Shown here: one piece after another, positions 18,831-56,200 of the stretch
Numbering within the stretch: position 1 is the stretch's first letter
Layout: every line of letters starts with the position of its first letter
NCBI RefSeq assembly: GCF_963676685.1
Contig: NC_092355.1
Span: 51,398,001-51,462,000, forward strand
From: Mytilus edulis
Lineage: Eukaryota
Length of the DNA stretch: 64,000 bases
Direction: 5' to 3'
The notes under the pieces: generated by a model
Database searches by the model: none
Told to the model about the DNA's origin: nothing
What the model saw: only the letters and a program-made list of their open reading frames with translations
Made by a program: the position numbers and the translations under genes

Positions 18831-20506
18831 GTCGAAGAAAACGAAATTCAATACGATGTTTTATGTCGTATCAAACTATTAGTGACTTTTCCAATCGCGT
18901 TTAAACAGGGAATCCTACTTTTAACTTTTAGACAACTGTATTCCTTGGTTAGAATAAATGTTTAAGTTTAAAACATAGTATTTGTAAAAGATTCAAAGAA
19001 GTGGGTGCAATAGTTGTACTTGAACCGTACCAATGTTGACGGCACCATCAGCAAAACTATATGTCTTAAACGATTTAAACAATGTAAAAATGTAGGAACA
19101 CATTACATTGTATATCTAAATCACTTAAATGTAACTTGTACATATAATACATTGAAACTTTACGGTAAAAATAAAAACAAATACAACTGCTCAGACAAAA
19201 CTTTGTACAAATAATTTTATTCGACATTAATTTCACCTGTAGTGATTCATAATCTATCATAAACCGTATTTACTCATTGATGCAAACTTTTGTCTTTTTC
19301 TCATTGATCTTATTTTGTGTGTTACATTAATGTACTGAAGCCGTCGACATAACTAAAGTAATTTACAACTACTAATTGGTCGATTGTTGGTTGCTTAACG
19401 TCCAGTGGCAAATATTCCAGGAACTCGTTGTTCAGTAGTTGTCGTGTGTTATTTTTAAGGGCCCTTTGTAGCTTGCTGTTCATAGAGAGCAAATGATTCG
19501 ATCCGTATTGAAGGTCGTACTTTGACCTATAATGGTGTACTTTTTACAAATTGTGACTTGGATGGAGAGCTGTCTCGTTTGCACTCATACCACATCTTCT
19601 AATATATATGTTCAAGACGATACTGCTATTGACAATCTACCGAAACCGATGTTAAAATGTTTGATATAAATGTAATTTCCATCGATTTCATTTCCTTTTT
19701 AACTCGTCGTTAATCGATGTAGATAGGCAAAATTTTGATTTTCAATATTATTTCATAAATGCATATATTTGCCTTTCGCTTTATATCGTTATTTTTTTTC
19801 TTTTTTCCCCGGGACATTCGATTGATGATGCTATTATAATCCATATCATTCTCGCTTCTTATTGTTTCTAAGATAATTAATTAAACAAAGTAGCAGCGAA
19901 AATGGAAAGCTTAATAAATTAAGTTCTATTTTAGAATATTTAGTTCCGGTTTTGATAGTTACATTGACGTAAGCTGTAACAAACTATGAATGAGATGAAC
20001 TATTAACTGCCATTTAAAATTCGATGCAACACGTCATCGAACCTTTTTTGATATCGTTAATTGTTCATCTTTTTTGATGACATATAATCTAACATTTATA
20101 TTAACCCAATATAACCTTTAATAAATATTCTTCAGTATAAACTGTATGCTTCAAGGGAATGCATGGCGTTTTCTCTAATAACCTTTCTTGTGCGTGTTTG
20201 TGTTGGATTTCTGTCACGTAGTGTTTTAGCGATATATTTTTTAACATTCAATTTGTCATAGCCGGGAGGTTTGGCATGCCATTAAACCTGGTTCAACCCA
20301 CCGTTTGTTCTTAAAATGTCCGGTACCAAGTCAGGAATATGGCAGTTGTTATCAAATAGTTGATTTCTACGTCTGCTAGCGTTTGTTTTTGTTGCACTTT
20401 GGTGTTCCTGTTGTTCCTTTGTTTTCCTTTTATAGTTGATGTGTTTCCCTCGGTTTTAGTTTGTAATCGTGATTTGTTTTCTCTCAATTTATTTTTAACT
20501 TCATAA

Positions 20507-20791
20507 GGGAGCTACCATTTGATTTTTATGGGGAGGGGGGCTAGGATGAAAAATTTTGTCCTGCATTTTTTTTTAGCTGTAATCTCTGTCCTGCCTTTTT
20601 ATTTTTCACTCTGTTCGGTCCTGCATTTTTTTTTTAGTTTATCCAGACTTTTTAACCTAAATTGTCGTCCTGACTTTTTTTTTGCAAGTGTCTCATCCTG
20701 CCTTTTTTTTTTAACTCAAAACTCCTGTCCTAACTATTTTTTTTTCAAATTTCATCCTAGCCCCCCCAATAAAAATCAAATGGTAGCTCCC
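20507..20791. mobile_element. PIF/Harbinger-like MITE nested in another repeat
   Basis: TAA|GGGAGCTACCATTTGATTTTTAT ... ATAAAAATCAAATGGTAGCTCCC|TAA; ~45-bp imperfect TIRs, 3-bp TAA TSD, internal GTCCTG-polyT subrepeats. Confidence 0.85.
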
Positions 20792-21415
20792 TAACACCGG
20801 TACACTTCTGTTGCCTTTGATTTTCTCTGATAACTTTTATGTCAGCACTCTAAATATATATAGAAAACGTAAGAAAAATCCTTTATCAATTTCAAAATTT
20901 GTGCAAGAAACCTAATCTTCTTATTTGAATATCATATGTTTTTAAGGTTTTTCAGGTTTTTAGTCTGTTGATACCTTTATCATAAAGCTATGGACAAATC
21001 TGACTTCAACAAAATAATAACAAATGAAGTGTTATCTCTTTCTGGTTACTTCAATCCTTAAATTTCAAAAACTTAAAGCAGCTAGATAAGGATATGGTTG
21101 TGCAAAACCTATATTTAGTATAGTTGAACATACGGTTAATGGTGCTCACATTCAACACAATGTTAAATACAGGTGTCAGACCACCTATTCAAAACCTCTT
21201 TCAACCAAATTTTGCAATTTTCACAGCTTTCTAATATTATACCGGAAGTTCATAAAATACCTTACAAGTAAAAACGCTAGTAGCATCATAGAAACCATTG
21301 TTCATTGTTCACCTTTCTACATGCCAAATTTCAAGTTATGTTAGAAAAAGTCTTATACTAAATCCCTTACCGTTACGGGAGGGATTATTCTTGATATTTC
21401 TATGATGAAGACATG

Positions 21416-21916
21416 TTTAATTGAGGTCTGGAGCTGGCATGTCAGTTAACTGCTAGTAGTCGTTGTTATTTATGTTTTTTGTCATTTTATTTATTTTTCT
21501 TAAATTTTGTTACATCTTCTGACATCGGACTCGGACTTCTCTTGAACTGAATTTTAATGTGGGTATTGTTATGCGTTTACTTTTCTACATTGGCTAGAGG
21601 TAAAGGGGGAGGTTTGAGATCTCATAAATATGTTTAACCGGGCTGCATTTTTGCGCCTGTCCCAAGTCAGGAGCCTCTGGCCTTTTTTTAGTCTTGTATG
21701 ATTTTTAATTTTAGTTTCTTGTGTATAATTCAGAGTTTAGCATGACGTCCGTTATCACTGTACTAGTATACATATTTTTAAGGGGCCAGTTGAAGGACGC
21801 CTCCGGGTGCGGGAGTTTCTCGCTACATTGAAGACCCATTGGTGGACTTCGGCTCTTGTCTACTCTATTCTTTGGTTGTTGTCGCTTTTGATAATATTTC
21901 CCTCTTAATTTCATTA
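21416..21916 (+). mobile_element. 3'-UTR copy of Penelope-like family 1
   Basis: Colinear with ~31145-31642. Confidence 0.85.
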
Positions 21917-22422
21917 TAAAAAAAAATAGCCTGTGAAAAACAAGCACTATTAAAAATAATCCCTGTTTTTCTGGAAATACTATGGAGCGTATTAATCCTT
22001 AATTAAGTCATAGACAATGTAGTTTTGAAACAATCCTGCAACTTTGGTTAAGTTTAAGTAACCAAATACATCAAAAGCACTATTTTGTGTCAAAGAAGGG
22101 CTACTTTTACGTTCTAAATTGGAGTGAGTGAATTGGTTGTATGACATCTACAGACTTGGTACATGTATAGTCATTACATTGAACAACGGTTCTAATGTGT
22201 TTCCTGTGTTAATATTTACGTCTGAATAATATGAGACGTGCAATAACGGAAAATCCATAAAGTCGTTTTAACCTATGATAGCCCTATATTAAAAATTTTA
22301 GGACCTAACGGAAACAATTGTTGCATCTATTCAATCGACATTCAAACGATTTTGAATATGAGTAATCAAGTTTGTTATACAGTTGAATACTTTGGGCTGC
22401 CTTTTTAAGAATCACATGATCG

Positions 22423-22780
22423 ATACCACTGTTGGTATGTCACTGCTGGTGGAGTTTTGATTCTCCGAGGTTATCATCAGCCAAATATTCAGCACTTCAC
22501 TTCTGTGCTGACATGAATTATACTTGAAATGGTCTTATTTATAAATTAACTGTTTACAAAACATTTGAATTTTTGTAATACTAAGGCTTTTCTGCCTCTG
22601 GAATAGATTACCTTAGCTATATTTTGCAAAGCATTCAGGACCAAAATCTTCAACTTCGTACTTTTTTGGGCCTTTTTAACTTTTTTGGATTCGAGCGTCA
22701 CTGATGAGTCTTTTGTAGACGAGACGCGCGTCTGCCGTAAACACAAAATTTTATCCTTGTATCTATGATAAGTTTATTTA
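22423..22780 (+). mobile_element. Nearly full retrozyme monomer with type I hammerhead (22696-22737)
   Basis: Colinear with 42700-43068; ribozyme has GAGA in place of GAAA. Confidence 0.85.
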
Positions 22781-25700
22781 AATATATACTTATCACGATT
22801 TCGCTATAAAAAAGAATATTTTGATAGTGAATTCCCGTGCATCGATTGTCGTTTGATGTTTTAAAATTATTTTTGTTTAGCAAATAGCTATTCATTATAC
22901 ACTCGATTCTTGAAAACCTTTTGATTAATGCAGTCTTTGGGCTCACAGAAAGACGATACATGCAATTGGCATAGAACAAAGTTTAAATATACTGCGTTTG
23001 AATTATCAATTTGTATAATTTTCATTTATTCTCAATGAAACTACAATAAAATAAGATTATTGAATATGTAGTTATCCGCCGAAGATGTTAAAAATATCCG
23101 GTTTACACTATTTTAAGAAAATGAATAAATAATCTTTATTTGAAGAGAATATTAATCCCATTTGTTAAACATTTAACTTATCTTCATGAGACCCCTTAAA
23201 ATAAAAATAACATGTAAACACATACAATATTCTGTCGTTAAATATTCTATATTTGAGAACCAGAATATATAGATTTTTAATTTGAAAAAAAGATGGCTAA
23301 AGAATCTAGATTTGAAAAATAGTTTTCCATCAGCTGAACGTAAATTATAACAGGAGAAAAGTTTCGTAACCAAATCTTATACTGATTAAAATACAAGCAT
23401 TGCCTTTTGATATTGAAAACAATGGACTCAGATAATTAGTGCTTCATGTATCTACTGTTAGCTAGCTATTTTAGGCTTACCGAAGAACCTGTTCGTTATT
23501 GCAACCGTAAAATAAAATTCTGATCATATCTGTCCAGACTGCTAATAATTATGATCGATTTGTTTATGTGACAATATTGATGCTTTCTCAGAAAAGTCAT
23601 CGATGGTCACACAAGCCCTATTCAGGGGAGATATGTATTTATCACGCGAAGATGACGTTGGTTTGTTGTTGCTTTTATTTTACATATTAGGTTGATGCTG
23701 AAATTTTCACGTTTGTGCTTTTTAAAATATGTTAGTTTGATATTGTTAGGCGAGAATCTTTCTGTTGAAAGTTAAATGTTAAATCCGAAAGTCATCATCC
23801 TTATCTTCAAAATCTACCCTTTTTAAATTTTGGTTGATTCTATTTCTAAGCAGGATTTTGGTTTCACATTTTTTGACTAATATAATTTCCAAAGTTAGGT
23901 TTAAAGACCCACGGGCTTTGTTCGTATAAGGCTGAGAGACATAAAAAACTTATATAAAAGAACAAAAATAAAAATAAACATAAATAAAAAAAAAAAAACG
24001 GAATAAAAAAGACATGAGAGTGCAAACAGTCAGATTTCTATTACCCCAAGATGGATGTTATACATACCGATATCAACATGGTCTATCGTCGGGAAAGATA
24101 ACAAAATCTAAAATGGCAAGTGTAACAAGGAGCATAACTCAATACTGCAAGCATTGGTTTCAATGAAAACATCGCGACTTATAAAACAAAAGCTGTTCAC
24201 ACAAACCTTAGTACAAACGTTTAGTACACTATTGCCGCCTACAAAAAGACCCATCATTGATGCTTAAATAAATACGTTATTTTAAGGATGTACTTTGTTG
24301 AAATTGAAAAATCAAGAATTTAAAATAGATACTATAACTAGTAAAAATATGAGAGGTTAAATGCTATAATACCATGTTCAATTCACCATTTTCTACATTT
24401 GACATGCCTATACACTGTACCTAGTCAGGAATATGACAGTTGTTCATTCGTTTGATGTTTTTTTATCATTTGATTTTGCCATTTGATTGGGAGCTTTCCG
24501 TTTTGAATGTTCCTAGGAGTTCAGTGATTTTACTTTTTAGAAACAAGATAATAAGCTAAAAATATTGATAGGCTATTGAGCTTTTTTCGAGATGTTTGAT
24601 TTTTAAAAGATGACAGGAAAAGGCTTACTCTGACTTTTAACTTACAATTGCATTGGAATTGTTTGGGTCACCAATTATAAGAAAAGAAATCTAGAACCTG
24701 CTTAAATTTTAGTAAAAGACCTTTTTTGAATTATTGAATTATTATAAGAAAGAAAAATGGGTGTTACGGGACAAATTTGTTATCTTTTATCGTAGGAAAA
24801 AACCGAACATCTGACACAAATTACTAAACCTCACCTTAGTACATTCTGAAGGCCAAATCAAATTCAAACTTTTGTATCTGGCCGTCACTAGTAAGTCTTA
24901 TGTGTACAAAACGCACTTCTGGCTCATAAATTTCAAACCTGGTGCCTTTTGTTAGCTATTATTCGTGTGTTTCTTTGTCAATTGTATTCTCCTATTTATT
25001 TGTATTGTAGTCCTGTAATGTTGTGTTGTCATTTTAATGTTATATCTAACATGGCCATAAAAGAGGGAGGTTTTGCATGCCATAAAACCAGGTTCAACCC
25101 ACCATTTTTTCTTTAAAAAATAACTTGTACCAAGTCAAGAATATGGTCATTGTTATATTATAGATAGTTTCTATGTGTGTTACATTTTAACGTTTTGTTT
25201 CTTTTGTGTCGTTTGTTTCCTCTTAAATTTGAGTGTGAATTCACATTATTATAAGACGTGTAAAGGTATTTTTCTATCCCAAATTCATGTATTTAGTTTT
25301 GATATTCTCATCGGATTTTGTCTAATGCTTAGTTAAGAACTGTGTGTGTTACATTTTAATGTTGTGTTGTCATTCTCTTATATTTAATGCGTTTCCCTCG
25401 GTTTTGGTTTGTGACCCGGATTTGTGTTTTTTTCTATCGATTTATGAGTTTTGAACATCGGTATGCTACTGTTGCCTTTATTTAAGGTAATGTGTCGTTC
25501 GGCTAGTTAATGAATACTTTAATTCGAACACCCTATGTAAGGCCTTAAATGTCTTTTGAAATCATTCCGTATATAATAATTTGTCGTTAGCTAATTGTCT
25601 TATTGACATTTTACAGATGAACCGACTCATTATCATTAGATATATATGTATACCCTTATTAGACGCTTAGGCATATAAAATCACGAAAAATAACTATTTT

Positions 25701-27829
25701 CAAAATGAAAATTCTGTAAATATCACGTCGATGTTTTAAATCATCAATTGAAATTTCTCTGAGGAGAATGATCAACATAAATCTTTCAAATTAGTTCTAA
25801 TAATAGCGATATCACAGTGTTCATATTTCTATTGAAGATATCTTTTATACTGACGTCAAAAGTTCAATTATAAAAGTATTTCTAGACATATATGAACATT
25901 AATGGATATACCAGTTCTATTTTAGCATTTACAATATACGCTTTTGTTTAAATTTGGCATTGATGGGTTCAATTTATTTCCTATTATATGTTAACTTTTC
26001 ACACTGACTGTATGGCTCGTAGACTAAAAGGATATAATGCACATTGTTTGGCAAAATGTCATCTTATTGTATATTATAGAAGACTCCATTAATCAAGGAT
26101 ATTATAATTGAAATTTTAAAGATATCAGCACGACATGTATCATTTTATATCTATTTATACTTAAAACACTGACCACACATAATTTGAAAACACCTATTAA
26201 TTTAGCAAATCTTTCGCCGTCACAGTGTCTCATAATTAACAAAAATGAGCAGAAAGTAATGATATTCCAATAAAAAACTTTAGGCTAGAGGATTTTTGTC
26301 CAGTTCGAATTAAAAAAAAACACATTGGCTTATCATAATCCATGGGTTTGTGGCTACTCCAATAGAATGTATTATCTGTTATATAAATCCCCAGCAATGG
26401 ACCATGCAACCTGGATAAAGAAAGGGTGGATTACAACTATATGTCCCCTTTCAAATGCATTGATCGTAAAACAAAAGAGGGTTCCAACCCATAAACCGCC
26501 ACCTCCTGGATCCGCCACTGTGGTGTTTACATCTCCAGCGCTTGCCTTTATAGCTATAGCGTTTAAATTTACATTTGTATTGCAAGACTTAAAAAACAAC
26601 AACACTTTGTCTGAGTGAGACCAACAGGACTCCGCAATTTTGTCCGGCTATAAAAATGTGATCTCAATATTTCTAATTAAAATCTATCTCTAAAGACAGG
26701 CTGCAATGCGCAAATCCGGAGCCTTCTTGTTGTTATACTATCTTATTACACATACAAGTATCAACATCAACTGAGAAGTATGCACTCCATAAATTAAGGA
26801 CGGGAAGTTATTTATAGAAATATATAGATAATATCATGTTTAAAATTAAACGATTATTTTTTAGTAGATTTTAGTTTTGAATGCACATGTTTAAGCAGAT
26901 ATCTCTTTGCTGCAGCAAGAAAAAAAGTGGCTGAAGATGAATTCAGCATATATTTGACGGTGGATGATTTTTTTTTGTTATTTCAGTAAAACCCCATATA
27001 CTAGTGGTCGCTGACATTGTTGAGGTCTTCACTTATATCAAAATTACCACAACGATTATATATAAACCTCGAACTTATACTGTGAGCTTTTAAACTATTA
27101 CACGAGTAGAACAGTGTGCACATGCAACCAAAGACACATTCAACCGAATAATGAAGTGGTTGACACAAATCAATATCGTGCCTGTTCATTTAACTCTTTC
27201 TTCTTAGCTGTGACTTGACATTAAAGCTTGCATTCACAAGCAAACTGAACTATTTTGCTTTCTTTGATAGACATTAAAGGCTGCATTCACCCATGGGCTG
27301 ATTGTTTTTGTTTTCTTACTAGTATCATAATGTGCATTGTAAGTACTTATGTTATACTTAACCTAAAGGTAAATTGGTCAGCGAACCTTAGATCATGATT
27401 GAATTATTTTTCTAAATACGGATGTATCTGCTCGTTAAAGTAACAAAAGGATCAATACTAAAAACTTAATTAGGAAGAATTACTAACCAAACAGGACACA
27501 AATATAACCTTATCTTTAAGAAATAGTTCTATTTATAGATACACAGATTGACCGATAAACTTCTAAGGTATTTGTTTTGTCGTTCAAGATCTATTATACG
27601 TTATTATCCTACTATAATATGAGCATTAATGAAGTCTTCAATATCTAATACGGCTTTTGATGAAAAACAACAGCCTTTTCTTTTCTTATTAATGAAAGGT
27701 TGTTTGAGACTAGAATCAAATTAAATAAAGAATTTCGTAGGGCTTTATCCTTGTTGTGTACTGGTATATTTGCCTTTTTTATTTGTTTGTGTTAGTTTTA
27801 ACATACATTGTGGTTTTTTTTTATAGTGG

Positions 27830-28147
27830 ATTGGGAAAAAAATAATTACAACTTATATTAATCCCTTTCCACTTTGTTGGGGCGAGTGCTGCCTTGTAGT
27901 GGCATAGGTCTGCTTTTTTCCGAAATCTACAAGGGTGTCTTTTACATGCAAGTGACCCTCTATTAATACGGGTCAGCCATCAATCGTCCCCTTCAACGGA
28001 CTATTATCGTTTCTCAAGATCATACTCGAAAATGGCGTCAAGGGAGAGCCGAAAAGCCAGTCCCTGACATTTGCCCCAAGGAACAGTGAGCGAACCATGA
28101 ACCTTTTTGTTTATAGTCCGATGCGTTAACTACTGCACCACGGTTCT
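27830..28147 (-). mobile_element. tRNA-derived SINE (Deu/Nin-like central domain), older copy
   Basis: Colinear with 46203-46563; degenerate A/B boxes at the 5' end. Confidence 0.7.
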
Positions 28148-30515: not shown

Positions 30516-31642
30516 ATTTATGATAAAAGGGATGATTTTTCATTTCCTATCGTTAATTATCCGTTTTTAGATGGTGACGTTCCCTTGTCACCATCTTACG
30601 GTGTTTATATATCTCAACTTGTACGATTCGCTCGTGTATGTAATAATGTTTTCGATTTTAACGAGAGAAATTTATGTATTACTGAAAAATTATTACACCA
30701 GGGTTTTCGATATCACAAACTAGTCAAAACATTTACTAAATTTCATCATCGGTATAAAGACATCATTCGTAAATATAGCTCAACATGCAGACTTCTAATA
30801 CGTTCAGGTATTTCACATCCAATTTTTTATGGTAATATTCTTTATAAAGCACAAAGGTGTCAGTATTCACCTCAGAAACTTACAAAACCCTTGAATAGAC
30901 TTATTAAGAAGGGATATAATTACGATACTGTTGTCAAGTCATTAAAGATTGCATATTTTGGCGTTACTATTGAGTCACTGATAAGGTCTTTGCATCGGAA
31001 CTAAACACATTTATTCTAAAAACAGTTGTTGGCATGACACGGGTTATGTTCTTCTCATATATGTTATGATGGTATGATACTAAACCCCTAACGGGAAGGA
31101 TTGTGCCTGATGTTCATATGATGAAATCATAATCTTTCAGTCAGTTTAATTGAAGTCTGGAGCTGGCATGTCAGTTAACTGCTAGTAGTCTGTTGTTATT
31201 TATGTATTATTGTCATTTTGTTTATTTTCTTTGGTTACATCTTCTGACATCAGACTCGGATTTCTCTTGAACTGAATTTTAATGTGCGTATTGTTATGCG
31301 TTTACTTTACTACATTGGTTAGAGGTATAGGGGGAGGGTTGAGATCTCATAAACATGTTTAACCCCGCCGCATTTTTGCGCCTGTCCCAAGTCAGGAGCC
31401 TCTGGCCTTTGTTAGTCTTGTATTATTTTAATTTTAGTTTCTTGTGTACAATTTGGAAATTAGTATGGCGTTCATTATCACTGGACTAGTATATATTTGT
31501 TTAGGGGCCAGCTGAAGGACGCCTCCGGGTGCGGGAATTTCTCGCTACATTGAAGACCTGTTGGTGACCCTCTGCTGTTGTTTTTTATTTGGTCGGGTTG
31601 TTGTCTCTTTGACACATTCCCCATTTCCATTCTCAATTTTAT
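30516..31642 (+). mobile_element. Penelope-like retroelement (Naiad-type), family 1, 5'-truncated; RT C-terminus 30516-31004 plus ~640 nt 3' UTR
   Basis: In-frame IYDKRDDFSFPIVNYPFLDGDVPLSPSYGVYISQLVRFARVC, homologous to the RT at 6286-7260; ends CCCCATTTCCATTCTCAATTTTATT. Confidence 0.85.
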
Positions 31643-31856
31643 TTGAAAAAACAAGTTTTTTTTCTACCCCATAAATAGATTACATGTACCACAGCTTGAT
31701 ATAATTAAAACCTTTCGAAATTGAGGGTCCTCCATTCTGTCCAAATGCTATCTTTATTTGGTCTTAATTAACTTTTTTATTTTTATGTCACAGATGACAC
31801 TTTTGTAGACGAAACGTGCGTCTGGGGTACAAAATATTCTCCTGGTATCTATGACT
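31643..31856 (+). mobile_element. 3' half of an old retrozyme monomer (5' part at ~30465-30510), split by the PLE insertion
   Basis: Both PLE flanks join to match the retrozyme consensus; decayed hammerhead at 31786-31827. Confidence 0.7.
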
Positions 31857-32360
31857 ATTATATATAAGTCAGATAAGTATCTTAGACGGCATAAGCGTTA
31901 TACATTTTAAACTGGTCATAAAACAATATAAATAAATTTGGTTGGAATTGAAGCAGAAAATTGAAAACAAATCGTTTGATTTATTGAAGTTTAACGCTAC
32001 TGTAGGAGCTGTTGGCTAGTTCAAATTGACTAGATTTCATTTTTGAGGAAGTTGTAGTTCTACAGAGATCACCACCGATTATTGGCATTAAAACTGTTAA
32101 TGTCTGAGTTGATCGCACCTTACAAGGATTAGGGTTTGAACAAACATCATCATTGTTGTCATCCCCGAGGAAGAACTTTTCAGACCACTCCGCTACTGAT
32201 GCCTCTAAATGTGTTTTTTTCTGTCTTGATTTAACACTGATACATAAAGGCCTAATTAAATTTAAAATTTAAAAAGATCATATTGCATTCAGACATGATC
32301 AAACTTACTATTTCATACAATTCATGAATAAATCAGGGACTGGATGTAAGATTTTTTCAT

Positions 32361-39423: not shown

Positions 39424-40764
39424 ATTTTAATGCTGCATACTAAAATAAATGTCATTCGATAAATATTTTAGCTTACGAATGGCATAAATGAGAAAGTCCG
39501 CGAAACTGTTGCATCTTCTTTAGCATCTAAACAATCTGACAACATATGTATACTGTGGATGTCAAACATTTAACACTTAACTTATTTGTACTTTTCGTAC
39601 GCATCAGAATGGTTTAAATACAGACAAAAAGAAGATTTTGATGTTCAAAATGTGACTATCTTGTTTATTTTATTTTTTAGAAATTACATACCCCATAAAA
39701 AATCCGTATTCAACATGATGGCTTTCTATAAGTTACGGACTGGTAGAACGAGGAATATAACCCCTTAAAATATTTGTGGTCAACGTCCAATGAAAATTAT
39801 TATTACAAACGAATTGCATTAGAATGGATTATCTAATTGTTGAGATCGATTTAACAATTAACCATAAGGAAACAGAAATACAAATGAATGATGAAAATAA
39901 AGGACGAAATCTGGAATAACACATATCTATGTGAAAAGAGAAATATCTGCATTCAGTATACAGTATTAGTCTCAGTTAAGTAATCAAATGATGGCAAGTC
40001 AATCAAAAATGTGTAGACAGTGTTGTGTAGTCCATTCATCGTAAAACAATTACACATCCTATAAGATGCATTTGCATGTTCTTTTGAACTGTTTGCAAAC
40101 ATATTATTCGATTTTTTTTAAAAGTGCTTCTTCTTAAAACCATCTACTTGAATGGTATAGTTGAGATTGAAAATCGATTAGTATATACTTAATCTATCGA
40201 ACACTAATGGACAGTAAAACAGTAACTGAATTTGTTTTTGTTTTCAGAAATATACAATTCTTAGAAACGTATCCAGGGTATCAATTGCAGTGTTGTCAAT
40301 AAAATAAACATTAAGATTTTGTTTTTTAAAAGCTATGACGTATATTATTTATTACCATATAAACAATAATGTCCTGCTTGAAAACATTAACAGTCCCAGG
40401 ATGATCAACTTCCGAGGAAAGACAAGTTATTAAAATTTGATCTACTCGAGCGATCGACTAACAAGCAACGTCCAAGCGTCCACAGCATCATGCACTGGAT
40501 TAACGGAAGTAACATTATAAAGGAATGTAAAAATCATTTTAATAAAAATATTGAAAGAAACAAATTACTGTTGTACCTATTTATGACATGTTTACCTATT
40601 ATGTCTGTCTGTGTTGTTGAAACATCTTTGTCAATATAATGAGATTGTATGCGACTGTCATACAAGTGAAAGATTAAGCTAGCTGTTTACCAGGTTAAAT
40701 CCACCATTTTTGTTGTAAGAAAATGTCGGTTCCAAGTCAAATATTTGACAGAAGATAGCAATTC

Positions 40765-41412
40765 TGTCTGTGTTGACAAGAGTTATCATTGATTTGGTCA
40801 TAATCATGAATTAACTGTTTACAAAACTTTGATGTTTTTCAATACTCAGGCTTTTCCACCTCCAGAATAGATTATCTAAGCTGTATTTTAGCAAATTTTG
40901 GGGGACTCTTTGGTCCTCGGTGCTCTTTAGCTTCGTATCCCATTTGAATTTTTTTTATATGAGCGTCACTGATGAGTTTTTTGAAGACAAAACGCTCGTC
41001 TGGTGAAAATAAAATATTTTAGTCCTGGTATCTATGATGAGTTTATTTACATCCACTAGGTCGATGTCACTGCTGATGGAGTTTTTTCCCCCAAGGATAT
41101 CACCAGCTCAGTTATCACTATTTCTGTGTTGACATGAGTCATCATTGATATGGTCATACATTGTAATTATAAATTAACTGTTTACAAAACTTTGTGTTTT
41201 TTCAGTACTAACTTTTCTCCCTTTTGAATAGATTACCTTAATTTAGCATTATTTGGCAAATCCTTTGGGAATTTCGATATTCCTCAGCTTCGTACTTTAT
41301 AATATCTTTTTATCTTTTTCTAATCGAGCGGAACTGATGAGTCTTTTTTACAAAGAAATGTGCGTCTGGCGCAAAATTAACTTTTAGTCCTTGTATATAT
41401 GAATAGTTTATT
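40765..41412 (+). mobile_element. Tandem retrozyme (~1.8 monomers) with two decayed hammerheads
   Basis: Hammerhead relics at 40964-41005 and 41329-41372; GUC cleavage positions 41000 and 41366 give a 366-nt period. Confidence 0.85.
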
Positions 41413-42580: not shown

Positions 42581-43068
42581 ACGCGTCTGGCGTTTATACA
42601 AAATTTAGCCCTGGTATCTTTGATGAGTTTATTTACAACCACTGGGACGATGCCACTGCTGGTGGAGATTTATTTCCCCGAGTTTGATGAGTTTATTTAC
42701 AACCACTGGGACGATGCCACTGCTGGTGGAGATTTATTTCCCCGAGGGTATCACCAGCACAGTAGTAAGCACTTTTGTGCTGACATGAATTATCATTGAT
42801 ATGGTTACATGTACATTTATAAATCAACTGTTTATCAAATATTGATTGTTTTAAATACTAAGGCTTTTCTACCTCAGGCATAGATTACCTTAGCTGAATT
42901 TAGCAAAACTTTTTTGAATTTTGGTCCTCAATGCTCTTCAACTTCGTGCTTTATTTGGTCTTATTAACTTTTTTGGATTCGAGCGTCACTGATTAGTCTT
43001 TTGTAGACGAAACGCGCGTCTGGCGTATATACAAAATTTAGTCCTGGTATCTATGATCAGTTTATTTA
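42581..43068 (+). mobile_element. Greater-than-unit-length retrozyme insertion
   Basis: Begins ACGCGTC|TGGCG, contains a 64-bp tandem duplication (42619-42746), hammerhead at 42984-43025 (CUGAUUA variant); absent from paralogous module A copies. Confidence 0.85.
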
Positions 43069-44454: not shown

Positions 44455-44750
44455 ATGACTGATGTACCCATATTTTGACTACTATATTTATTGTGTCTGT
44501 TTATTTAACGCATCAATGTAAAAATATCGGAAATTGATGAGACTGTCATTAAAGTGAGAGGGTTAGCGCTATAGAACCAGGTTTAATCCACCATTTTCTA
44601 CATTTGAAAATGCCTGTACCAAGTCAGGAATATGACAGTTTTTGTCCATTCGTTTTTGATGCGTTTTGTTATTTGATTTTGCCATGTGATTATGGACTTT
44701 CCCAATTGATCTTCCTCTAAGTTCAGTATTTTTGTGATTTTACTTTTTAG
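44455..44750 (+). mobile_element. Short retroposed element inserted in module C copy 2
   Basis: Absent from the other C copies; related copies at ~24350-24540, ~40590-40750 and, on the minus strand, ~8655-8820 and ~60000-60230. Confidence 0.7.
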
Positions 44751-45939
44751 TATCTCCAAAAAATAATGCTTTAAGGTTTAAAGTTACACAATCATGCAAC
44801 GAAAACATTGATAAACTATTAGACCGTTAATATTACCAATTAACGTGTATTGGAACTTCGCATCTCTAGCTTTTATTGATATATGTAACATTAACAAAGA
44901 TAAATCAATATAACCTTCAAAGCATCAACAAATAACGGTAACGGTTATGGCTACCAAGACCTTTTATAGAACCTGTTGGGATTTGTTTTATATGTTATTT
45001 TGTAGACCTTATATAGGTGCTATAATGTGTTACATGTAAATAAGGAATTCCAGTGCAAAAATGTCCCTTTTCTAAAATCTGAATACCCTAATTGTCTAAC
45101 AATGGGGCACGATTGATACTACTGAATAACAATGTTATGTGATTACTGAATACTATAAATACTTTAATGACAAAACCGAAGTAAGAATACTAAAATCATT
45201 AAGGAACGAAACAATAAATAAGGACCAAGAAAAGAAATATTAACATCGGTACCAATTGTACTGCACCAGATATGCAGTTTTAAAATAAATGTCTCTCTTT
45301 TGATGCTCGAAGTAAAGAGGCTGTATTTCTGTCACGCAGTGTTGTCATTTTAGCAATACTTGTTAACAATTCCATGTCAGTGGGAGGTTTGGCTAGCCAT
45401 TAGACAAGGTTCAACCCACGAGTTTTTCTTTAAATGTTCCTCAACAAGTAAGGAATATGGCAGCTGTTATCAAATAATTCGTTTCTATGTATGTTGGTGT
45501 TTGTTTTTGTTGCACGTCAGTGTTTCTGTTGTTCCGTTGTTTTCTTATGACTTTTGACCAGCGGTATACTACTGTTGCATTTGTAAATGAATATATAGCA
45601 TCTTGAAATTATAACAATTAAATGGAACGCGATTAAAAAAAATCACAATTATTGTTACTTTTAAAATACTTCAAATGATTATCATAATTATGACGGTTTT
45701 AAAAGGTTATTCTAAATCAATGCTGTGACGACATCATATTCATTTAAACTAACACAATACTTTATGCATTGAAAATGAAAATTATCTTGACTATACTGAC
45801 AAATAAAACATACGTGAAATGTACCGAAAATACAAAATTTAAACCACAAACGATAATACAGAATTCAATATCCAGCCGTATTTACTAAAGAAACATTATA
45901 TATTACAAGGTGTTCAACTATATATAAATATATATACAT

Positions 45940-46147: not shown

Positions 46148-46202
46148 ATATGCAGAGTCAATGTGTAAAGTTTTAGGAATGTGGGTTGATAGCTGAAGTA
46201 GT

Positions 46203-46946: not shown

Positions 46947-48000
46947 AATGTGCTTAAACATGCTGAAACTGAACCAAGACAAAACGGAACTGATCTTATT
47001 TTCACCAAAAAATCGTGTAAAGGAATTTTCGAATTGTCATCTGTTATTTGATGAATCAATAGTAAGCAATGCATCTGTGGTAAAAAAATCTTGGTGTTTA
47101 TTTTGATAGAACATTAAGCATGGAAAAGCAGGTCAATGGCATCACGAAGTCGTGCTTCTTCCAAATTAGGAACATTGGTAGAATTCGGCAATATATCACT
47201 GAGGATGCCTGTAAAACTTTAGTCTGCTCGCTCGTCACGTCACGTCTAGACTACGGAAACGCTCTGCTTTATGGAGTAAATACCAGCTTAGTCAATAAGT
47301 TACAGCGAGTACAAAATACGGCAGCCAGGCTCGTTACACGTACCAAGAAACATGATCATATAACACCAGTTCTTGTGTCTCTTCATTGGATTCCGGTGCA
47401 GTACCGAATACAATATAAACTTCTTTTGTATACTTTCAAAATCCTGCATGGTCTAGCGCCCGTCTATCTTGAGGAACTCATTAGTGCCTATCAACCATCA
47501 AGATCTCTAAGATCGGAAAATGCCATGCAGCTTATACAACCTCGTGTACGCACCAAAATCTATGGAGAAAGACGTTTCGACAAAGGTACTGCGAGTCTCT
47601 GGAACAATCTTCCTAGCCATCTAAGACATGAACACTCAATCGAACTTTTTAAGAAAAATTTGAAAACCCATTATTTTAGACTCGCTTTCAGTGATTACAT
47701 GTAACTTTTTATACTGACAATGGCTTTCTAACTTTGTTCTTTTCGTTGTAGTATAATATGCCTTTTAATTATGATTATTTATTTTTTTAACTTTTCTGTT
47801 CCTTTTTGGTTTTTTTTTTGGTTTTTTTTTTATATTATGTGTTTCAAAATTTTATTTTATTCTTATTGCATTGATTGTTTTAATGTTTAACACCTTTTTT
47901 TTTAACTGCATTGATTGTTTTATGTTAAGCGCTTAGGGTAATTTTAATTAGATAATGCGCTATATAAATATTGTAAATAATAGTAAATAATAATAATAAA
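46947..48000 (+). mobile_element. L2/CR1-group LINE 3' fragment (ORF2 C-terminus, 3' UTR, (AAT)n tail)
   Basis: NMLKLNQDKTELILF, +1 frameshift in A-run near 47082, SRLDYGNALLYG, LQRVQNTAARLV, HITPVLVSLHW; 3' AAGCGCT...TGCGCTATATAAAT followed by AATAATAATAAA. Confidence 0.9.
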
Positions 48001-51000
48001 TGCTCCTTGCTCCTATACTTCAATACTTTTGACAGAAGACAACAAAATACCGATCTCAAGTAAAGAAATCAAACCGTTAATATGGTGTAACTCTGTATAT
48101 TGATTAACATGCTTCTGTTAGCATCACATACAGTGATTATTATTTCAACAGTTCATTTAATATGATAGCAAGGTTTATTAGTATAAAAATTGTTCTGTGT
48201 GATTCAGATTGATATTGTAGTTCAAGTTAAGTGTTTGGAAATGCCATCTTGGTGCAAAGTTACATTTCGGCAATTCATTTAATAATGATAACCTCTATAT
48301 CAAGGTCAACATCGAGACGACCAAAAAGAACTCAATTGAGTGCGTTTAAGTTCCAAAGTGCAAAGGTTTTACTGGACCGGGACACGAGGAAAGTATTTTT
48401 GACAAGTTATGTTGTCACTGACTAGAGTGACCTTTATTCATATATACATGGTACAGGTTTGAATTCATGCTATATCTATTTAATGCCAGATATTTCTAAA
48501 TCGCTAATGTTTGAACTATTGTTTTTGTTTCTGAGTCTCCCAAATAAAGTTCAAGTTTAATAAAGAAAACAACACTCGAACGATACAAATTCTAGCCTTC
48601 TATTATATCTGTGTACAAGCTTTGTAACCATGCATATAACCACAAGTTTCAAAATATTGTATAGAAACTTTGCATAAAACATAATGGTGCCTAGATTTTT
48701 TTTAATGCAATGAGATGTAGGATTTATTTTCTACAACTGTCAAATTAAAATTGTCGACCCTTTTTCATATGCAAACTGATTTGACGTACTATGATTTAGT
48801 AGAATTACACCCTATATGTACTTTGGTTCGAATGTTCTATTTTTGATATTCTTTTTAGGTACCTATATTAGGATTCAAAATTTAATAGCATGCAGTTATC
48901 ACGAGATAACTCCACCATAAATAAGCATTCATTATATCACCAGACCTTCACCTGGGTATATTTTGTTTGTTCTTAATATCAAATCTATAAAACAGTATAA
49001 AGCAGGAACCTCGAGCTGCTATTGTTTACTCTGGAACGGAAACATATTATTTTGAATAATAATCATCTCTTCAGATTTATGAAGCACGAGTCAGCATGAT
49101 GTTCGAGTATTAGAATACCGTATTACTCGATCTATTTCTTTAATAAAATTGTTTTATTGTTTATTACTTTCGTCCGTACTAAAATACATGAAATATTTGC
49201 CATTGTACATTTTTAATAATTTCCTAACGTTCTGAACATGCAATAATTATTTGAGCGATGTTTGAGGTTCGTGTTGTTTATTCGTTAGTTTTCTATGTTG
49301 TGTCGTGTGTGCTGTTGTTTGTTTGTCTTTTTCATTTTTAGCATGGCGTTGTCAGTTTGTTTTAGATTTATGAGTTTGAATGTCCCTTTGGTATCTGTCG
49401 TAATTCTTTTAACATTGTTTTGGGAAAATCTGGTGATCTAATTTTATTTCCTTTTTCCATTTGTCATATCATATACACAGTACTACAAACAATGTCACGG
49501 TAATGGGAAGTTTAATTTTAAATGGAAAAAAGGGTACCATAATTTATACTGATATTTGAAGACAAAATATGGGTTGTAATTCGATGGAACACAGCTATCA
49601 ACAAATATATAAAATGGTGACAATGACCGTCGTTAAATAGACTGGAAAGGACAAATGCGATGCAAAAAGTAATTTTAAGATTTTTTTTCCTGCGATATAA
49701 CAGTATATACATGTAATGATCACCCAATGTTTACCGTGACATTTCAATCAATGCAGTATTGTTTTTTTGTGCTTAATTAATATTTGTTTGTATACCATGT
49801 ATATCTTTTCCCGCCCACTTAATCTTAATCATCATATATCTAAACAGTCAAAAATTTTTACAATGAAAGGCCATAACAAATCAGAGCTCTAGAATTTTAT
49901 TATCACGTCTTTATATATATTCATCATATACGTGAAGGTTACTGTAAGAGAAATGCAAACAAACAAATAAAAACATTTTTTTATTTTTCAATATTCATGT
50001 TTTTTATGATGAGGTTTCAGTCTTGTAATTGACTGCTCCATAGGCTTAGATGCAAAACAACTGATCTGTGAAAATATATCCTTCTACTTTCCTGGTTTAT
50101 TATCTTCAAAAAAGATGCAATTAAAAAAAATATTCTATATGTTCCAATTCAGCAGGAACATTTATTCGTACTATTCCAGTTCTTTTGACCTTTTAAAGGC
50201 ATAACGGATCAATATGAAGTATAACTTGAATAAAAGTTGATGATTTGTGGTGGAAGATGATACGCAACCCTGTAATTTTGACGAATTCAATTCAATTCCT
50301 CATGTTCAATATATTGAATAAGATTTCTTTTTATCATCTGCACAGATATCTTACATGAACTTCTGCATCATTATTCAACTAAAATAAATACTAGTACTTT
50401 CTACTTATAAAACACATAATGCTTTTAAGGTTTAAAGTTACCAACTCACGCAAAGAAAACATTTATAAACTACGTGACCGATAACATGACCAATTAACTT
50501 GCATTTGGAACTTCTCTTCTACAGCTTTAAAACCTTATTGATATATCGAACATTAATAAGCATGAATCAATATACTATTGAAAAAAATCAACAATTAGCA
50601 GTAATGGTTATAGCTACTTAGACCTTTCTTAAAATCTAGGTTTTGTTTTAATGGTGTTCACCTTACATAATGTTTTTATATGTTGAATAATTAATTATTG
50701 ATGCAATGTCCCTTTGTTTATACTGCCAATACCCTTAATATGTTACAATGGGATACGGAAGCCTGACAGTAGTGTTCTATGGCTAATCTGACAATAAACC
50801 ATGAGCTACAATTTTTGAAAAAGTGTTACATAAGTGCATCATATTTCAATGTTATTTTCTTTTATATCAATACAAAGTTATACTGGTGGACATTTGGTGG
50901 AAACATTGTAAATAATATTTAAACAAAGTATATAAATCACAAATTGTGAAAACAGCAAACACAATCATTGCTTGATTGATTGATAATTGTTTACCGTTCG

Positions 51001-52857
51001 TCCATTTAGCCAAACATATCTGCCAAGGGCTGGATTCAAACCCACAATCCAGTGTCGACTACTAGTAAAAATGTAGAATACTCGGCTACCGAGACCCTTT
51101 TCTCTTACAATGAAAATAAAAAGCTGACCTATTTAATATTGTGTATACGTATACATAGCTTCAAAATTGCACTACAGATAAATAACTTGAAGTGTAAATT
51201 TCCCATCTTTAGTTTTGTAGAATAATGACGCTTCTATTTTTTAAATAGTTTCCCTGTCCTCTGAAGTGTTTGAAGCAAAGGATTGTTGTTTTATTTATTA
51301 AACATGAACTTAATTTTGGGATATTCAGAAACAAAAACAAAATGTTGAAACATCAGTCAAAATTGAATACATGTATGTTTAAATGTCATTCTAGTCAGCG
51401 ACAACTTGTCTTAAACTCTTGACCTAAAAGTTAATGGTTCCCTCTAGGAACTCCAACTATATGTAAATTCAACTAATTCAGTAATGTGTTTTTTTTCAGT
51501 GATTAATTAATTTTGTTTGTGTTGACTCAACTATTGTTTGTATACCAAGTTTCTTTTTTTCCCCGCCCACTTTATCCACACTCATAACTATCTGTACGGA
51601 CAACATGTTTAACAACATTAGGATTGGTTAGACAAACACATAGCAGAGTTCTTAGACTCTATTATCACGTCTTTCTTCATTATATTTGTAGAGAATATTG
51701 GAATAGTAATGCATAACACACGAATGTTAAAAGAAAATAAAAACCCTAGTGTTAAATAAACTTGTATCATTAGAATTTATGTATTCTTTAGAATAAATAT
51801 CATATTTATTGGTACCATACTGGTTTATGTGACTTCAAGATGCAGTACTTGAATAAAAGTGAGAGTAATTTATTCGGTGCCCTGTCATACTGCTGGATGC
51901 CTTTCGATTCCCAATGTGTATTCAATATTTTGGGTAAGAATTTATTATAATGTAAAACGATATCTAACTTCTACATTTTTTTTAACTGAAATACATTCTA
52001 AAATCTTCTATGCATAAAACATAGTGCTCTAAGGTTAAAAATAACACAATAACGCAAAGAAAACATTGATAAACTACCAGACCGATAACATTACGAATTA
52101 ACTTGAATTGGAATTCTCTTCTCCAGCTTTTATTGATACATGCATCAATATATTATTGAAATCTTCAAAGTTTCAACAATTAACAGTACCATCTATGATT
52201 ACCTTGACCTTAGGTAAAATCTATCAGATTTCGTTTCAATATTGTAGATCTTAGACCTTTTTCAATGTGTTGAATAATTAATTCTTGATGGAAATTTCAT
52301 GTACATAGATGGCAGGAAGCTAAGATTGAAAATCGATCACTTAATTTATAGAACATTAGTGGACAGTAAAACAGTAATTACATCTTTATGTTTTTGTGTA
52401 GAGAAACATACAATTCTTAGAATCGTACCAATGGCAGTTTAGTCAATAAAATAGACTTTAAGATGTTGTTTTCTAGAAACTACGACAGAAATTATATATT
52501 TTCCTATAAATATGAAAGTTCAGCTTGAAAACTTAAACTGTACCAGGCCGATAATCTTGATAAGAAAAAGAAGTTATACAAATTCGATAAACAGGTATCT
52601 ATTCGTGCGACCGTCAGGGCAAATATGAATTTCTTGCAAAAGCAATATCAAAGCACCATGATCATATAAATAAATTTTGTGCTTTTACTGTCTTCTGATT
52701 GGTTAAAATTATTAGTTTTATTTTCAATGTTGTCAATTTTGATGGCGACACGCCCACTTTGACGTTGTGTATTCATACGCCAACATGTGTGTACGTAAAT
52801 AATATAAAAAGTTCTTTGAGCCTTAGTTTTGATGGAAATTTATTTATAATGAATAAT

Positions 52858-52982
52858 TTATTTTGATTTTATTGAACCATAAAACTAATTTTTGACTCTT
52901 CACATTTTACATAATCCGCTTCAATGATTATTCAATGTTAAGAGTCAAAAATTAGTTTTATGGTTCAATAAATTCAAAATAG
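52858..52982. repeat. Long inverted repeat (~43-bp arms), probably a non-autonomous DNA element
   Basis: TTTATTGAACCATAAAACTAATTTTTGACTCTT ... AAGAGTCAAAAATTAGTTTTATGGTTCAATAAA. Confidence 0.85.
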
Positions 52983-53182
52983 ATAATAGCCATTCATTAA
53001 ATGAATTTCTGCAAATGCATGGTTTTAGCATCATAAACATGATGAAGGAAATACAATAAGACATGTAAGACAAACGATAAAACAAAATCAAACGAAAATC
53101 TACAAATTAAGGCATATAAAGCTACACATCTATCCATAATCTAGTAAATAGTTATCAAAGGTTCCAAGATTATAATTTATTA

Positions 53183-53224
53183 CGCCAGACGCACGTTTCG
53201 TCTACATAAGACTCATCAGTGACG
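53183..53224 (-). ncRNA. Intact minimal type I hammerhead ribozyme (within retrozyme fragment ~53144-53365)
   Basis: CGUCA-CUGAUGA-GUCU-uaugu-AGAC-GAAA-CGUGC-GUC^UGGCG: stems I and II pair, the catalytic core is complete, stem III is minimal. Confidence 0.85.
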
Positions 53225-56200
53225 CTCAGATCAAAATAGTTGTAAAGCCAAACAAGTACAAAGTTGAAGAGCACTGAGGACCCAAAATTCCAAAAAGTAA
53301 GAGAATCGTTAGTTTTTTCGAAAAATTCAAATTTTTGTAACAGAAAATTTATAAAAATGATCACATAAGGTGAGGTGCTACGTCTAAGCAGATCCTAATC
53401 AACATTTGAAACCCGTGGTTTCGCTTGCGTAAGTACATGTGATGTGACATTATTGAAATAGCTTTTATAATTTATAATTGTTCCTACGGAATTGGATCAT
53501 CTCATTCGTCATCTATGAATAATGGGAGTCTTGATAATTAAACTAGTTGTTAATTTAAAAAAAGTTAATTACATTTTTAAATACCAGACGAAAGGTTTTG
53601 AGAAAAGGTTAATGTAAACATAAAACAAACATATAAAACGATCTCGGGCTTTTGGATTCATTTGCAATTATCCGGGATTGAATAAATACATGTTCCTAAA
53701 AATAATCAATTGATATCTTATAGTGTGTCTTTCTATGTTATGATGTTACACTATTGTTTCATGAAAGTGTGAAGGTTGGTACCTATTTAAACGTTTAAAC
53801 CCGCTGCATTTGTTTGCGACTGTCCTTAGTCGGGTACCTGATGTTTCGTAGGTTTTTGATGTGATTCAAAAGTGTTTCTCTTTTTTTTTATATATAAATT
53901 AGTTTGTTAGTTTCCCCGTTTGAGGGATTTTACACTAGTAATTTCGGGGCCTTGTATATCTTGTTGCCAAGACACCGTATTGAAGACCGTACTGTGACAT
54001 ACATATAATGGTTTACTTTTACAAATTGTGACTTGGATAGAGAGTTTGCATTGGCACTCATATCACATCTTCTTAAATCTATTTTTATTAAAAAGAAAGT
54101 TGTAATCCCGAGAGGAAAAGTAAGGAAAATACATTTTTTGTTGTTATTATGTCTCCTTAGTATCAAACACCTTTCATATGAATGACTTTTTAAATTTCTT
54201 ATTCCAGAATGATGATTTTTATCCACGGTAATCGACATATTTCTTTTATAGGATAAATAAGGCTATAGACCTCTTATGTATGTTAACGTCGATTTCAAAA
54301 TGGCCATCGACCTTAACACGTAAAGTGACAGCAATAACCATATTTCTAACCACAATATGTACATGTCTCCTATACATGATTTCTACGTGTCACTTGCGTG
54401 GATTATAAACATCATGCAAGCAAAGTCAAGCAATTATGTCGTTTGGGAGAAAATAACATGATATCTATAAACATTAGATAAGGCGATATGTTAAGAGCTA
54501 TTGTAAATTTCCAAGAGATTCCAAAATAGTCATATTCTTCAATCCTTTCAAAATCATGTCATTTAAGATGATAAATAAATAGGACGATGTGATCTTTAAT
54601 CTTGGATACAAATGTGAAGACAGATGTCATAATTTCATAAACATGCTATATTAGCTACATTGGAAAACATTGTTAATTCTATTTGATATAATACTTTAAC
54701 CATAATCTTTACTATGTTTTCTAATCATTAATTTCTTAGAATAAAATATGTGTAGAAAACAATCTGTTTCGGTTAGGCCTTAGCTAACATATAAGTGTTA
54801 TCCAAATCAGATCTGAAAATATCGCAATGTCACTTCTGTTTTGACGGTTTGCTATAAACACAAATATCTAAAAAATAATTGAAAACTGCATATGCAGAAA
54901 TTGAACCTTTTTATATTCGAATCCATTTGCATTTCATTTTGCAGAGACCTTTAAATGTGTGTGCCACTCTCACTACCCTCAACCCACACACACTTATGTA
55001 TTACTATTTCAATTTCGATTGTATTTTCTATCCAATTGTGGGGTCTCGGTGGCCAAGTGGACTAAGTAGTTTCTACTGAATCACTAGCCAGTAAGTTCAA
55101 AAATGTATGTAATAGAATTTAAATACCGCCATAGACTAATAAGACCTATATATTTTGAGTTGTTTGATATAAGCTATAGATATATTTTCTAACGCTATCA
55201 GTTTAAACTTTAGTGCATGAAGAAATTTTTCCAAGAACACTTTTCATAGGCAAATATTTGTATCATAATTTTCTTGTTAAAAAAAGGTTTTATAGGTATC
55301 GAAATTAAAAAAAAAACCACTTAAATATCGACTCGAGCAAAACTTTGCCACTAAACCCCTTACTATCCACACCATCATTTCGAAATTGACAATTTGTATT
55401 ATATCTAGGCCAATATGTTCGTATTCCGGAGAATTAGAAGAAAGTATGTGCATAGAAAATAATAGTTTGAAATGTTTTTACTGTCTATTCCGTGACTTTA
55501 ACAACATAATTCCATTTGGTATTGATAAATAGGAAAGATTCACAATGTCATATACAAAAATATCTTGAAAACTGAATACATATACCAGTAATCAAAATCC
55601 TGAGTCTTGAATCTAGGACAATATCATTGTCTTTCGTAAAGCTAAAACATAGGATGTACTAAGAAATTGATAATTAAGAATTTTGTTTTATGTTTATATA
55701 GAGAACTTAGTAATAAGATTCCATTAAATATTGATGAATATGAAAGTTTCAAATACAAAGGCAATATCCGGATAGCTATATAATTATCATTGTTTTCCAA
55801 ATCATTAAATTAAAAACAAAATTTCCTGATGCAACTTTTCATTTTTGAAACCATAAAGATATGAATAAAAATTAATTACATGCATGTTTTGCCATAAATT
55901 TTTGATTTCAAAAAGAAAAGCGGTAAAAGATTTCTTAATGTCTTGATTATGCAATTCTAAAAACATTGTCCAATCCAAAATAATTTTGAGGAAAATTGCA
56001 ACGTAGGCGAATTTGTTATTTGGGTGGAACTGCACTGGATAACCACAACTGTTTAAATAGTTTTATTGATGAAAGTTGAAAATGTGTCTGATATCTAGGC
56101 TAATATGTCTTTAGATTTTGTCTTTTAATCATTTCTATTAATCCAATACCTCACTATCTGAAAGGCAAGGTCAAAGAGATTAAAAATAAGCGTTAAACGT

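Follow-up and report, generated by a model that had tools for sequence, protein, structure and literature searches.

The DNA analyzed here, referred to as the window, is a stretch of 64,000 nucleotides (nt) from Mytilus edulis (contig NC_092355.1, positions 51,398,001 to 51,462,000), which carries copies of a short conserved motif located in the 3′ regions of Naiads, a type of Penelope-like retroelement. The best-preserved copy lies at 31317..31407 (+), within a 5′-truncated family-1 Naiad copy at 30516..31643 (+) that consists of the C terminus of the reverse transcriptase (RT; 30516-31004), a selenocysteine insertion sequence (SECIS; 31056-31120), the motif, and the fixed 3′ end near 31643. 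From its sequence and the pattern of its base pairs, the motif is very probably a type-P5 twister ribozyme fold.

An earlier note on this DNA had listed nine instances of the motif, and all nine positions were found to be correct, with the described pattern or a decayed version of it present at each. Self-BLAST of the window sorted the nine into four sequence families. A covariance model trained on 16 natural copies recovered six of them at E ≤ 0.01 (31333, 21606, 20263, 25063, 44556 and 53774) and added three minus-strand copies (2979-3072, 16180-16266 and 17660-17745), giving 9 matches in the window overall. The model missed three instances (45382, 24352 and 40667), which BLAST placed in the same families as decayed members, at 70-77% identity. 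Extra partial copies were located on the minus strand at 8817, 41884 and 60159. The model replaced a first structural descriptor that was dropped as unspecific, because it gave 13 matches per 400 kb compared to 3-8 in Markov controls.

In the mussel's own 1.37-Gb genome, exact patterns gave 4528 matches for family 1, 2907 for family 2, 2980 for family 3, 132 for family 4 and 1606 for family 4b, a loose class pattern gave 14,254 matches, and reversed-pattern controls gave 0 matches each time. In forty arbitrarily placed 10-kb stretches (400 kb), the model found 29 matches, 4 of them training copies; because this amounts to about one match per ~14 kb, a rough extrapolation yields 10^5 copies per genome. 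The motif is real and not a product of chance.

When a 231-nt piece was searched, the Rfam model Twister-P5 (RF02684) aligned over all 58 model positions at 31330-31396. We read the copy against the twister features given in PMC5408937, PMC6154101 and Table 1 of PMC8501958 (papers are cited by PubMed Central number, in each case for the parts covered), and it was found to hold the P2 stem, a G and an A ahead of the strand of the T1 pseudoknot, a U^AA site, the dinucleotide of the T2 pseudoknot, P3, a 4-bp P4, the loop L4 and a closing P5. On the plus strand, P5 is formed by 31317-31325 with 31399-31407, followed inward by the P2 3′ strand (31330-31333), the conserved G at the general-base position (31334), the conserved A (31335) and the T1 strand (31336-31338). 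Two zero-loop palindromes of 10 nt come next, palindrome 1 at 31340..31349 in the place of the P1 3′ strand and palindrome 2 at 31351..31360, the last base of which is directly 5′ of the predicted cleavage site U^A (31360..31361). Beyond the site are the P2 5′ strand (31363-31366), the T2 strand (31367-31368), P3 (31369-31380), P4 (31381-31384 with 31393-31396) and L4 (31385-31392). The cleavage site was placed by homology to twister (Rfam alignment; PMC8501958), the G and A by the Rfam alignment, the P2 3′ and T1 strands by the alignment together with pair counts, and the P2 5′ strand, T2, P3, P4 and L4 by pair counts; alignment and counts also define the whole fold, which has a folding z of -3.0.

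The strand order is that of type P5 (circularly permuted, with the termini in P5), and the sequence of the closing stem differs by family. The L1/L4 nucleotides, including the A 3′ of the cut, form invariant or near-invariant columns, and the G at the catalytic position was kept in 158 of the 170 parsed copies, decayed ones counted. The earlier note could not assign the motif to a known family, and this did not hold: the Rfam alignment and the pair counts point to a type-P5 twister, so that at the level of class the motif matches an element already described. The note was correct that CCTG/CAGG closes a T(A/C)CCAAGT loop, which corresponds to P4 and L4. In families 1 and 3 the minimum-energy fold does contain the pairing of GGGTT with AACCC that the note described, but this pairing is incompatible with the catalytic fold; it was rejected as part of the active structure because it hides the cut site and the T1 strand.

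Base changes in the proposed pairs were counted in 16 curated copies, in which 98.1% of 270 cells were paired, with 22 two-sided changes compared to 7.1 after shuffling and 28-48% pairing in slid controls. In these copies P2 was 96.9% paired, with GC/AU/UA changes; P4 was 100% paired yet invariant in the M. edulis genome. With families 2 and 3 included (18 copies), two of the three T1 pairs changed on both sides (GC/AU and GC/UA) and T2, which was 100% paired in the curated sets, alternated between A-U and G.U. Because the curated sets had been picked in part by a descriptor that requires pairing, the count was repeated on every one of the 38 model hits, whether decayed or not, using an alignment made by the model without pseudoknot information: 84.6% of 175 T1 and T2 cells were paired, with 14 two-sided changes compared to 5.2 after shuffling and 26-46% pairing in slid controls, and T2 was 81% paired in these unselected hits. 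Copies within a family are not independent, and therefore these figures are counts and not probabilities. New complementary P2, T2 and P4 pairs were read by eye in the published Naiad_Scon and Naiad_Mphi sequences (T2 is C-G in Naiad_Scon), and in families 2 and 3 the P2 stem was found to be bulged and 3 bp long. The earlier note had named a lack of significant covariation as an outcome that would refute it; instead, both pseudoknots and P2/P3 are supported by compensatory changes.

The P1 stem had 0-2 of 4 canonical pairs in 13 mussel sequence types (each with at least two copies), compared to 4 of 4 in five phage type-P5 twisters, the five of nine matches having the P5 strand order, in which a stable P1 hairpin adjoins the cut. 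The assignment to twister is strong on structural grounds, but the motif lacks P1 and scores below the Rfam cut-off, and we file it as a P1-less variant and not as a plain member. The P1 region consists of the two palindromes, and their sequence varies between families with the palindromy kept. Palindrome 1 had an arm of at least 4 bp in 122 of 170 parsed copies compared to 18 of 1014 flank windows, and palindrome 2 in 149 of 170 compared to 24 of 1014, a difference that is inflated since palindrome 2 formed part of several search patterns. At least 12 different sequences of palindrome 1 were found. Where the family-4b pattern left the center of palindrome 1 free, the center was AT in 57, TA in 38, GC in 1 and non-palindromic in 4 of the first 100 of 1606 copies, read by eye; among 6017 copies of families 2/3b, 99 of the first 100 had AT or TA there. 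The published Naiad_Bpla, Naiad_Mphi and Naiad_Scon sequences, which were not selected for this trait, provided further palindromes of 6, 10 and 12 nt.

Neighboring bases in one strand cannot pair with each other, and for this reason the changes at the palindrome centers amount to covariation of intermolecular pairs. We rejected hairpins as the cause of the palindromes because the loops would vary freely and the predicted stability is about 0. The predicted folding energy of the P1 region was 0 to -1.1 kcal/mol alone compared to -10 to -19 kcal/mol as a dimer (the ranges of this monomer-fold comparison omit the family-4 row and family 4c). It seems probable from these sequences that the palindromes drive the formation of RNA dimers.

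The host elements were identified as Naiads by criteria taken from PMC8557442. Family 1 is a 3.97-kb Naiad with an N-terminal GIY-YIG endonuclease containing a CX2-5CxxC finger, CxC, GPKY (GxKY) and DKA motifs, and a C-terminal RT. It has in-frame UGA codons at cysteine positions, one of them eight residues past DKA, and a SECIS directly after the stop codon, and is a selenoprotein Naiad; in the parts of PMC8557442 covered, such Naiads are described for clams and spiders only. Its copies have a common 3′ end, 286 nt downstream of the predicted cut, and variable 5′ truncation, some are inverted, and partial tandems form pseudo-long terminal repeats (pseudo-LTRs), with 182 exact head-to-tail junctions. 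Families 2, 3, 4b and 5 have a Naiad-type RT upstream on the same strand that is 40-78% identical to that of family 1; among these four, CxC and DKA were observed for family 3 only, and the N-terminal endonuclease only via the published Naiad_Mgal, whose 3′ end is matched by family 3b and to whose lineage family 3 belongs; the family-3b match points to a Mytilus mussel as the host. The 3′ end follows the cut by ~390 nt in family 2, ~165 nt in family 3 and ~310 nt in each of families 4b and 5; the twister sits inside the pseudo-LTR, about 160-400 nt ahead of the fixed 3′ end. For family 4, 0 of 25 loci had a correctly oriented RT within 1.5 kb, and this family was grouped by its likeness to family 4b.

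The flanks cannot be aligned between families, and the earlier note had called the families otherwise unrelated, which was not borne out, since those with a traceable RT carry related Naiad-type RTs (40-98% alike). Its broader suggestion of a conserved cis-acting structured RNA of Naiad-type elements, possibly a ribozyme, stands; the palindromes in the place of P1 had been missed. An RT tree of 17 rows contained two well-supported groups with twisters in both, and therefore the ribozyme is either old in the clade or was exchanged; the twister-bearing families formed one clade in 44% of bootstrap trees only.

The twister is not universal among Naiads. The RT at 7254-6310 (-) belongs to an intact family without a twister in its tail, represented by an intact 1000-residue frame within a 3370-bp tandem (locus L302). 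The tail of this family (6110-6220, minus strand) has a different conserved 3′ motif, with 5679 pattern matches, that is laid out as an outer stem, an inner stem around a 10-nt zero-loop palindrome, CTGA and a hairpin (loci L302 and L297-L301). No Rfam match was found for this second motif. Its palindrome changes in sequence yet stays perfect in a diverged subfamily, in Naiad_Pmar and in the record preceding Naiad_Pmar, and the motif is a candidate second ribozyme.

Transcripts were looked at in four RNA-seq runs from two studies (6-18% of each run read, fragmented libraries, 133-nt bins). Family 1 was found to be transcribed on both strands, and one run had a strong one-strand excess over the 5′ open reading frame (ORF), which would be sense in a library of the usual kind. 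Sense RNA runs across the family-1 end-to-start junction, which was spanned by 18 reads; such reads do not distinguish tandem transcripts from circles. A sequence at the family-1 tandem junction (L039:2255-2275, +) resembles a splice acceptor, with a pyrimidine run and then CAG, and recalls the intron that Penelope and Chlamys have across the pseudo-LTR boundary; among the joints listed for the four runs, none was spliced.

Judged by its sequence, the motif is likely to cleave as twisters do. The model that we favor, with moderate confidence, is that a P1-less type-P5 twister in the Naiad pseudo-LTR cuts tandem transcripts to give circular templates, with the palindromes likely pairing the copies. 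The chemistry would follow the established twister model, a G/A-assisted attack of the 2′-OH at U^A, with C^A as the site in family 2. A single copy, having no P1, is predicted to favor folds that occupy the T1 guanines. In a two-copy transcript (the upstream pseudo-LTR and the 3′ tail, ~4 kb apart), palindrome 1 would pair with palindrome 1 and palindrome 2 with palindrome 2, freeing both cores, and the double cut would release one unit that retains the ORF and the SECIS. The unit-length RNAs would then be circularized and reverse-transcribed. Because the fixed 3′ end lies inside the unit and insertions cross the cut site unbroken, the template would need to be a circle (or uncut). Cutting with circularization has been proposed to explain the tandem insertions of Penelope-like elements (PMC4209133, PMC7229834), and Penelope hammerheads with a palindromic helix III act as dimers, for which circular templates were also proposed (PMC4209133).

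Predicted monomer folds sequester the T1 strand in most families, the GGGTT/AACCC pairing included, which speaks for gating by dimerization. That cleavage depends on the dimer we hold at close to even, if slightly below, because P1 is dispensable and the second 3′ motif keeps a palindrome too. A broader proposal, which we offer only tentatively, is that this would be the first natural twister to be turned on by dimerization, so that only two-copy transcripts, those of tandem and transposition-competent Naiads, would be cut and circularized and the ~100,000 solo copies in host transcripts would be silent, and that a palindromic dimer module would be a Naiad-wide requirement, reused by the second 3′ motif.

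Several observations weigh against the favored model, in its twister identity, its dimer step or its cutting. The Twister-P5 match on the 231-nt piece scored 23.1 bits (E 0.0058) and did not reach the gathering cut-off of 37.6, and ten other loci compared with Rfam gave two twister-P1 matches (E 3.4 and 5.2) and otherwise none. Two subfamilies carry a mismatch: C.C at the first pair of P2 in a large subfamily of family 2, and G.A at the third pair of T1 in one subfamily of family 3. The absence of P1 does not force a dimer, since P1 is dispensable for twister activity, though it is phylogenetically conserved (PMC11662667, PMC5408937). The topology is demanding if both palindromes are to pair between two closed loops, and the occurrence of a palindrome in the other scaffold of the second 3′ motif means that palindromes may serve something besides gating a twister.

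The genomic and RNA footprints of cutting are also wanting. Upstream pseudo-LTR starts were scattered around the cut site, between -1231 and +258, in the 27 of 30 junction loci that could be aligned (two pairs among the 30 are the same arrays): 14 lay at least 254 nt before the site, eleven at +130 to +258 and two close to it, at -6 and +7. In favor of the model, a whole second ribozyme was present upstream in 14 of the 30 junction loci; against it, 13 of the 27 aligned pseudo-LTRs were without a whole ribozyme. Among 103 copies without the U, 4 of 30 inspected began exactly at the A; starts at the A make up ~0.3% of copies compared to ~0.13% per base for nearby truncation (12 of 30 within 320 nt), an excess of two- to threefold at most that rests on four cases. 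The four RNA-seq runs had no end pile-up listed at the site and no clear dip; fragmented libraries seldom reveal ribozyme ends. We rejected the cut as the 5′ end of the element, the mode of R2 or Perere-3, because the pseudo-LTR starts are scattered around the site; the absence of a boundary pile-up at the cut is in line with a template that is circular or uncut, and it excludes the Perere-3 mode. Both mismatch subfamilies have been amplified, and they are natural tests of tolerance or lost activity (loci L072, L073, L086, L089-L091 and L094-L099).

Three other explanations were weighed. The twister might cut as a monomer, with the palindromes acting as a separate RNA-dimerization or RT-loading signal in the dispensable P1 slot, comparable to the retroviral dimer initiation site. 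This would agree with the dispensability of P1 (PMC11662667, PMC5408937) and with the 10-nt zero-loop palindrome, in four different sequences, of the second, non-twister Naiad motif, but it would leave tens of thousands of solo copies transcribed on both strands without an end pile-up at the site, and the predicted occupation of the T1 strand and the termination of palindrome 2 at the scissile nucleotide also argue against it; we consider it unlikely, if the most serious of the three. Alternatively, a twister-derived fold that no longer cuts might be bound by the Naiad RT/endonuclease, which was the RT-recognition idea of the earlier note, or might form a protective 3′ structure. Although the missing cleavage footprint in genome and RNA-seq speaks for such a role, as does a distance to the 3′ end that is fixed inside a given family, that distance varies between families (about 165 to 400 nt), and the A after the cut, the G before the T1 strand and L4 are kept across families with RTs 40-50% alike, the same catalytic positions being kept across four bivalve genera, so that this explanation appears improbable.

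Finally, the motif might have no function as RNA and reflect shared descent or DNA-level symmetry only, as a passively inherited stretch or as dyad sites that a DNA-binding protein recognizes. The families are indeed related Naiads, and palindromes are typical of DNA sites bound by proteins. However, the pseudoknot pairs covary although the flanks cannot be aligned between families, and at least 12 types of palindrome 1 are incompatible with a sequence-specific protein. Covariation largely refutes this explanation, to which we give very little chance.

The favored model can be compared with known systems. The mussel motif shares with the type-P5 twister (RF02684, clan CL00120) the strand order, the L1/L4 nucleotides, P2, P3, the 4-bp P4, the three-pair T1, the two-pair T2 and P5. 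It differs in having two tandem zero-loop palindromes instead of the P1 hairpin, G.U or A-U as the first T2 pair, a 3-bp bulged P2 in families 2 and 3 and a C^A site in family 2, in scoring 14 bits below the Rfam cut-off, and in its location in an animal Penelope-like element. The hammerheads of Penelope-like elements (PMC4209133) have the same pseudo-LTR location, with a 5′ and a 3′ copy in tandems, and likewise a palindrome in place of a missing helix, a proposed action as dimers and a circular template; the ribozyme class differs, and the mussel motif has two palindromes of 6-12 nt compared to the hammerheads' one loop of 2-4 nt. The T-variant twisters of Perere-3 (RTE) in Schistosoma mansoni (PMC8501958) are also retrotransposon-borne, with a defective P1 and the same core layout, but they are of type P1 at the element 5′ end and their cut sets the insertion boundary, whereas the mussel motif is of type P5 in the 3′ tail and its cut is not at the element boundaries.

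With the Naiads of Craig et al. 2021 (PMC8557442) the mussel elements share the N-terminal GIY-YIG, CxC, DKA and partial tandems. Naiads are reported there to be without canonical hammerheads, and the word "twister" has 0 occurrences in the covered text and supplement of that paper; the twister fold is nonetheless present, unannotated, in four published bivalve consensus sequences (Naiad_Mgal, Bpla, Mphi and Scon). In the literature searched, including the covered parts of PMC6765202 and PMC10085705, we found no twister in Penelope-like elements or molluscs, a listing in the supplement of PMC11662667 being possible. A search of the PMC8501958 supplement gave no match, and no natural dimer-acting twister was found in the literature searched, with subscription papers outside its scope.

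Naiads dominate bivalve genomes, and their lack of hammerheads was taken to suggest that these elements carry ribozymes as passengers that may be dispensable (PMC8557442). Finding a conserved twister in the hammerhead slot reverses this reading, since unrelated ribozyme classes fill one position, and therefore RNA self-processing is probably part of the Penelope replication cycle. A young, abundant and transcribed family now allows a direct test of the circular-template model. For RNA catalysis, the mussel provides a twister that naturally lacks P1 and is a candidate for a dimer-gated switch, with ~10^5 ribozyme-like motifs per genome (the rough extrapolation) having been missed by Rfam; in the Rfam search of the whole window, no twister was found at E ≤ 1.

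The other copies in the window are in various states of decay. Family 1 is represented by a decayed copy at 21589..21685 (+) with P2 and palindrome 2 mutated, and by a copy at 2979..3072 (-) with a small deletion within the palindromes and a SECIS at 3266-3330. Family 2 has a near-intact copy at 20245..20349 (+) with one P4 mismatch, a partly decayed one at 25047..25153 (+) and one at 45382..45455 (+) with a strongly decayed L4. Of family 3 there is an intact subfamily variant at 44538..44642 (+), with the third T1 pair mismatched and a folding z of -3.2, decayed copies at 24352..24432 (+) and at 60110..60200 (-; approximate bounds), and a 3′ end whose truncation lies close to the cut site (8644..8819, -); a decayed family-3b copy at 40667..40740 (+) has lost the T1 strand. 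Family 4 comprises a decayed copy at 53752..53848 (+), one without its 5′ part at 17660..17745 (-), and a family-4-type copy with P3/P4 damaged at 16180..16266 (-).

Elsewhere in the collected loci, a 207-bp tandem triplet of the family-3b twister region alone (L306:800-1290, -) and a 282-bp tandem pair of the family-5 twister region (L224) were found, which are possibly non-autonomous retrozyme-like twister repeats or else local duplications. Metagenome contigs JYMV01 (loci L242, L250, L258, L265 and L275) contained more diverged, partly decayed twister copies from another host.

The window also has type I hammerhead motifs of mussel retrozyme-type repeats at 42983-43026 (+), 53182-53225 (-) and 40960-40998 (+), and repeats related to hammerhead retrozymes at 451-622, 16395-16543, 22437-22793 and 31726-31867; the type I hammerhead retrozyme repeats of mussel are a described class (PMC7229834). 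A 208-codon open frame at 4048-4674 (-) has a weak match to GNAT acetyltransferases (E 0.0047) and is probably a host exon. Beside family-1 copies, a 511-codon gag-like frame with a zinc knuckle was found at L038:5924-7456 (+), which we take to be probably an LTR retrotransposon.

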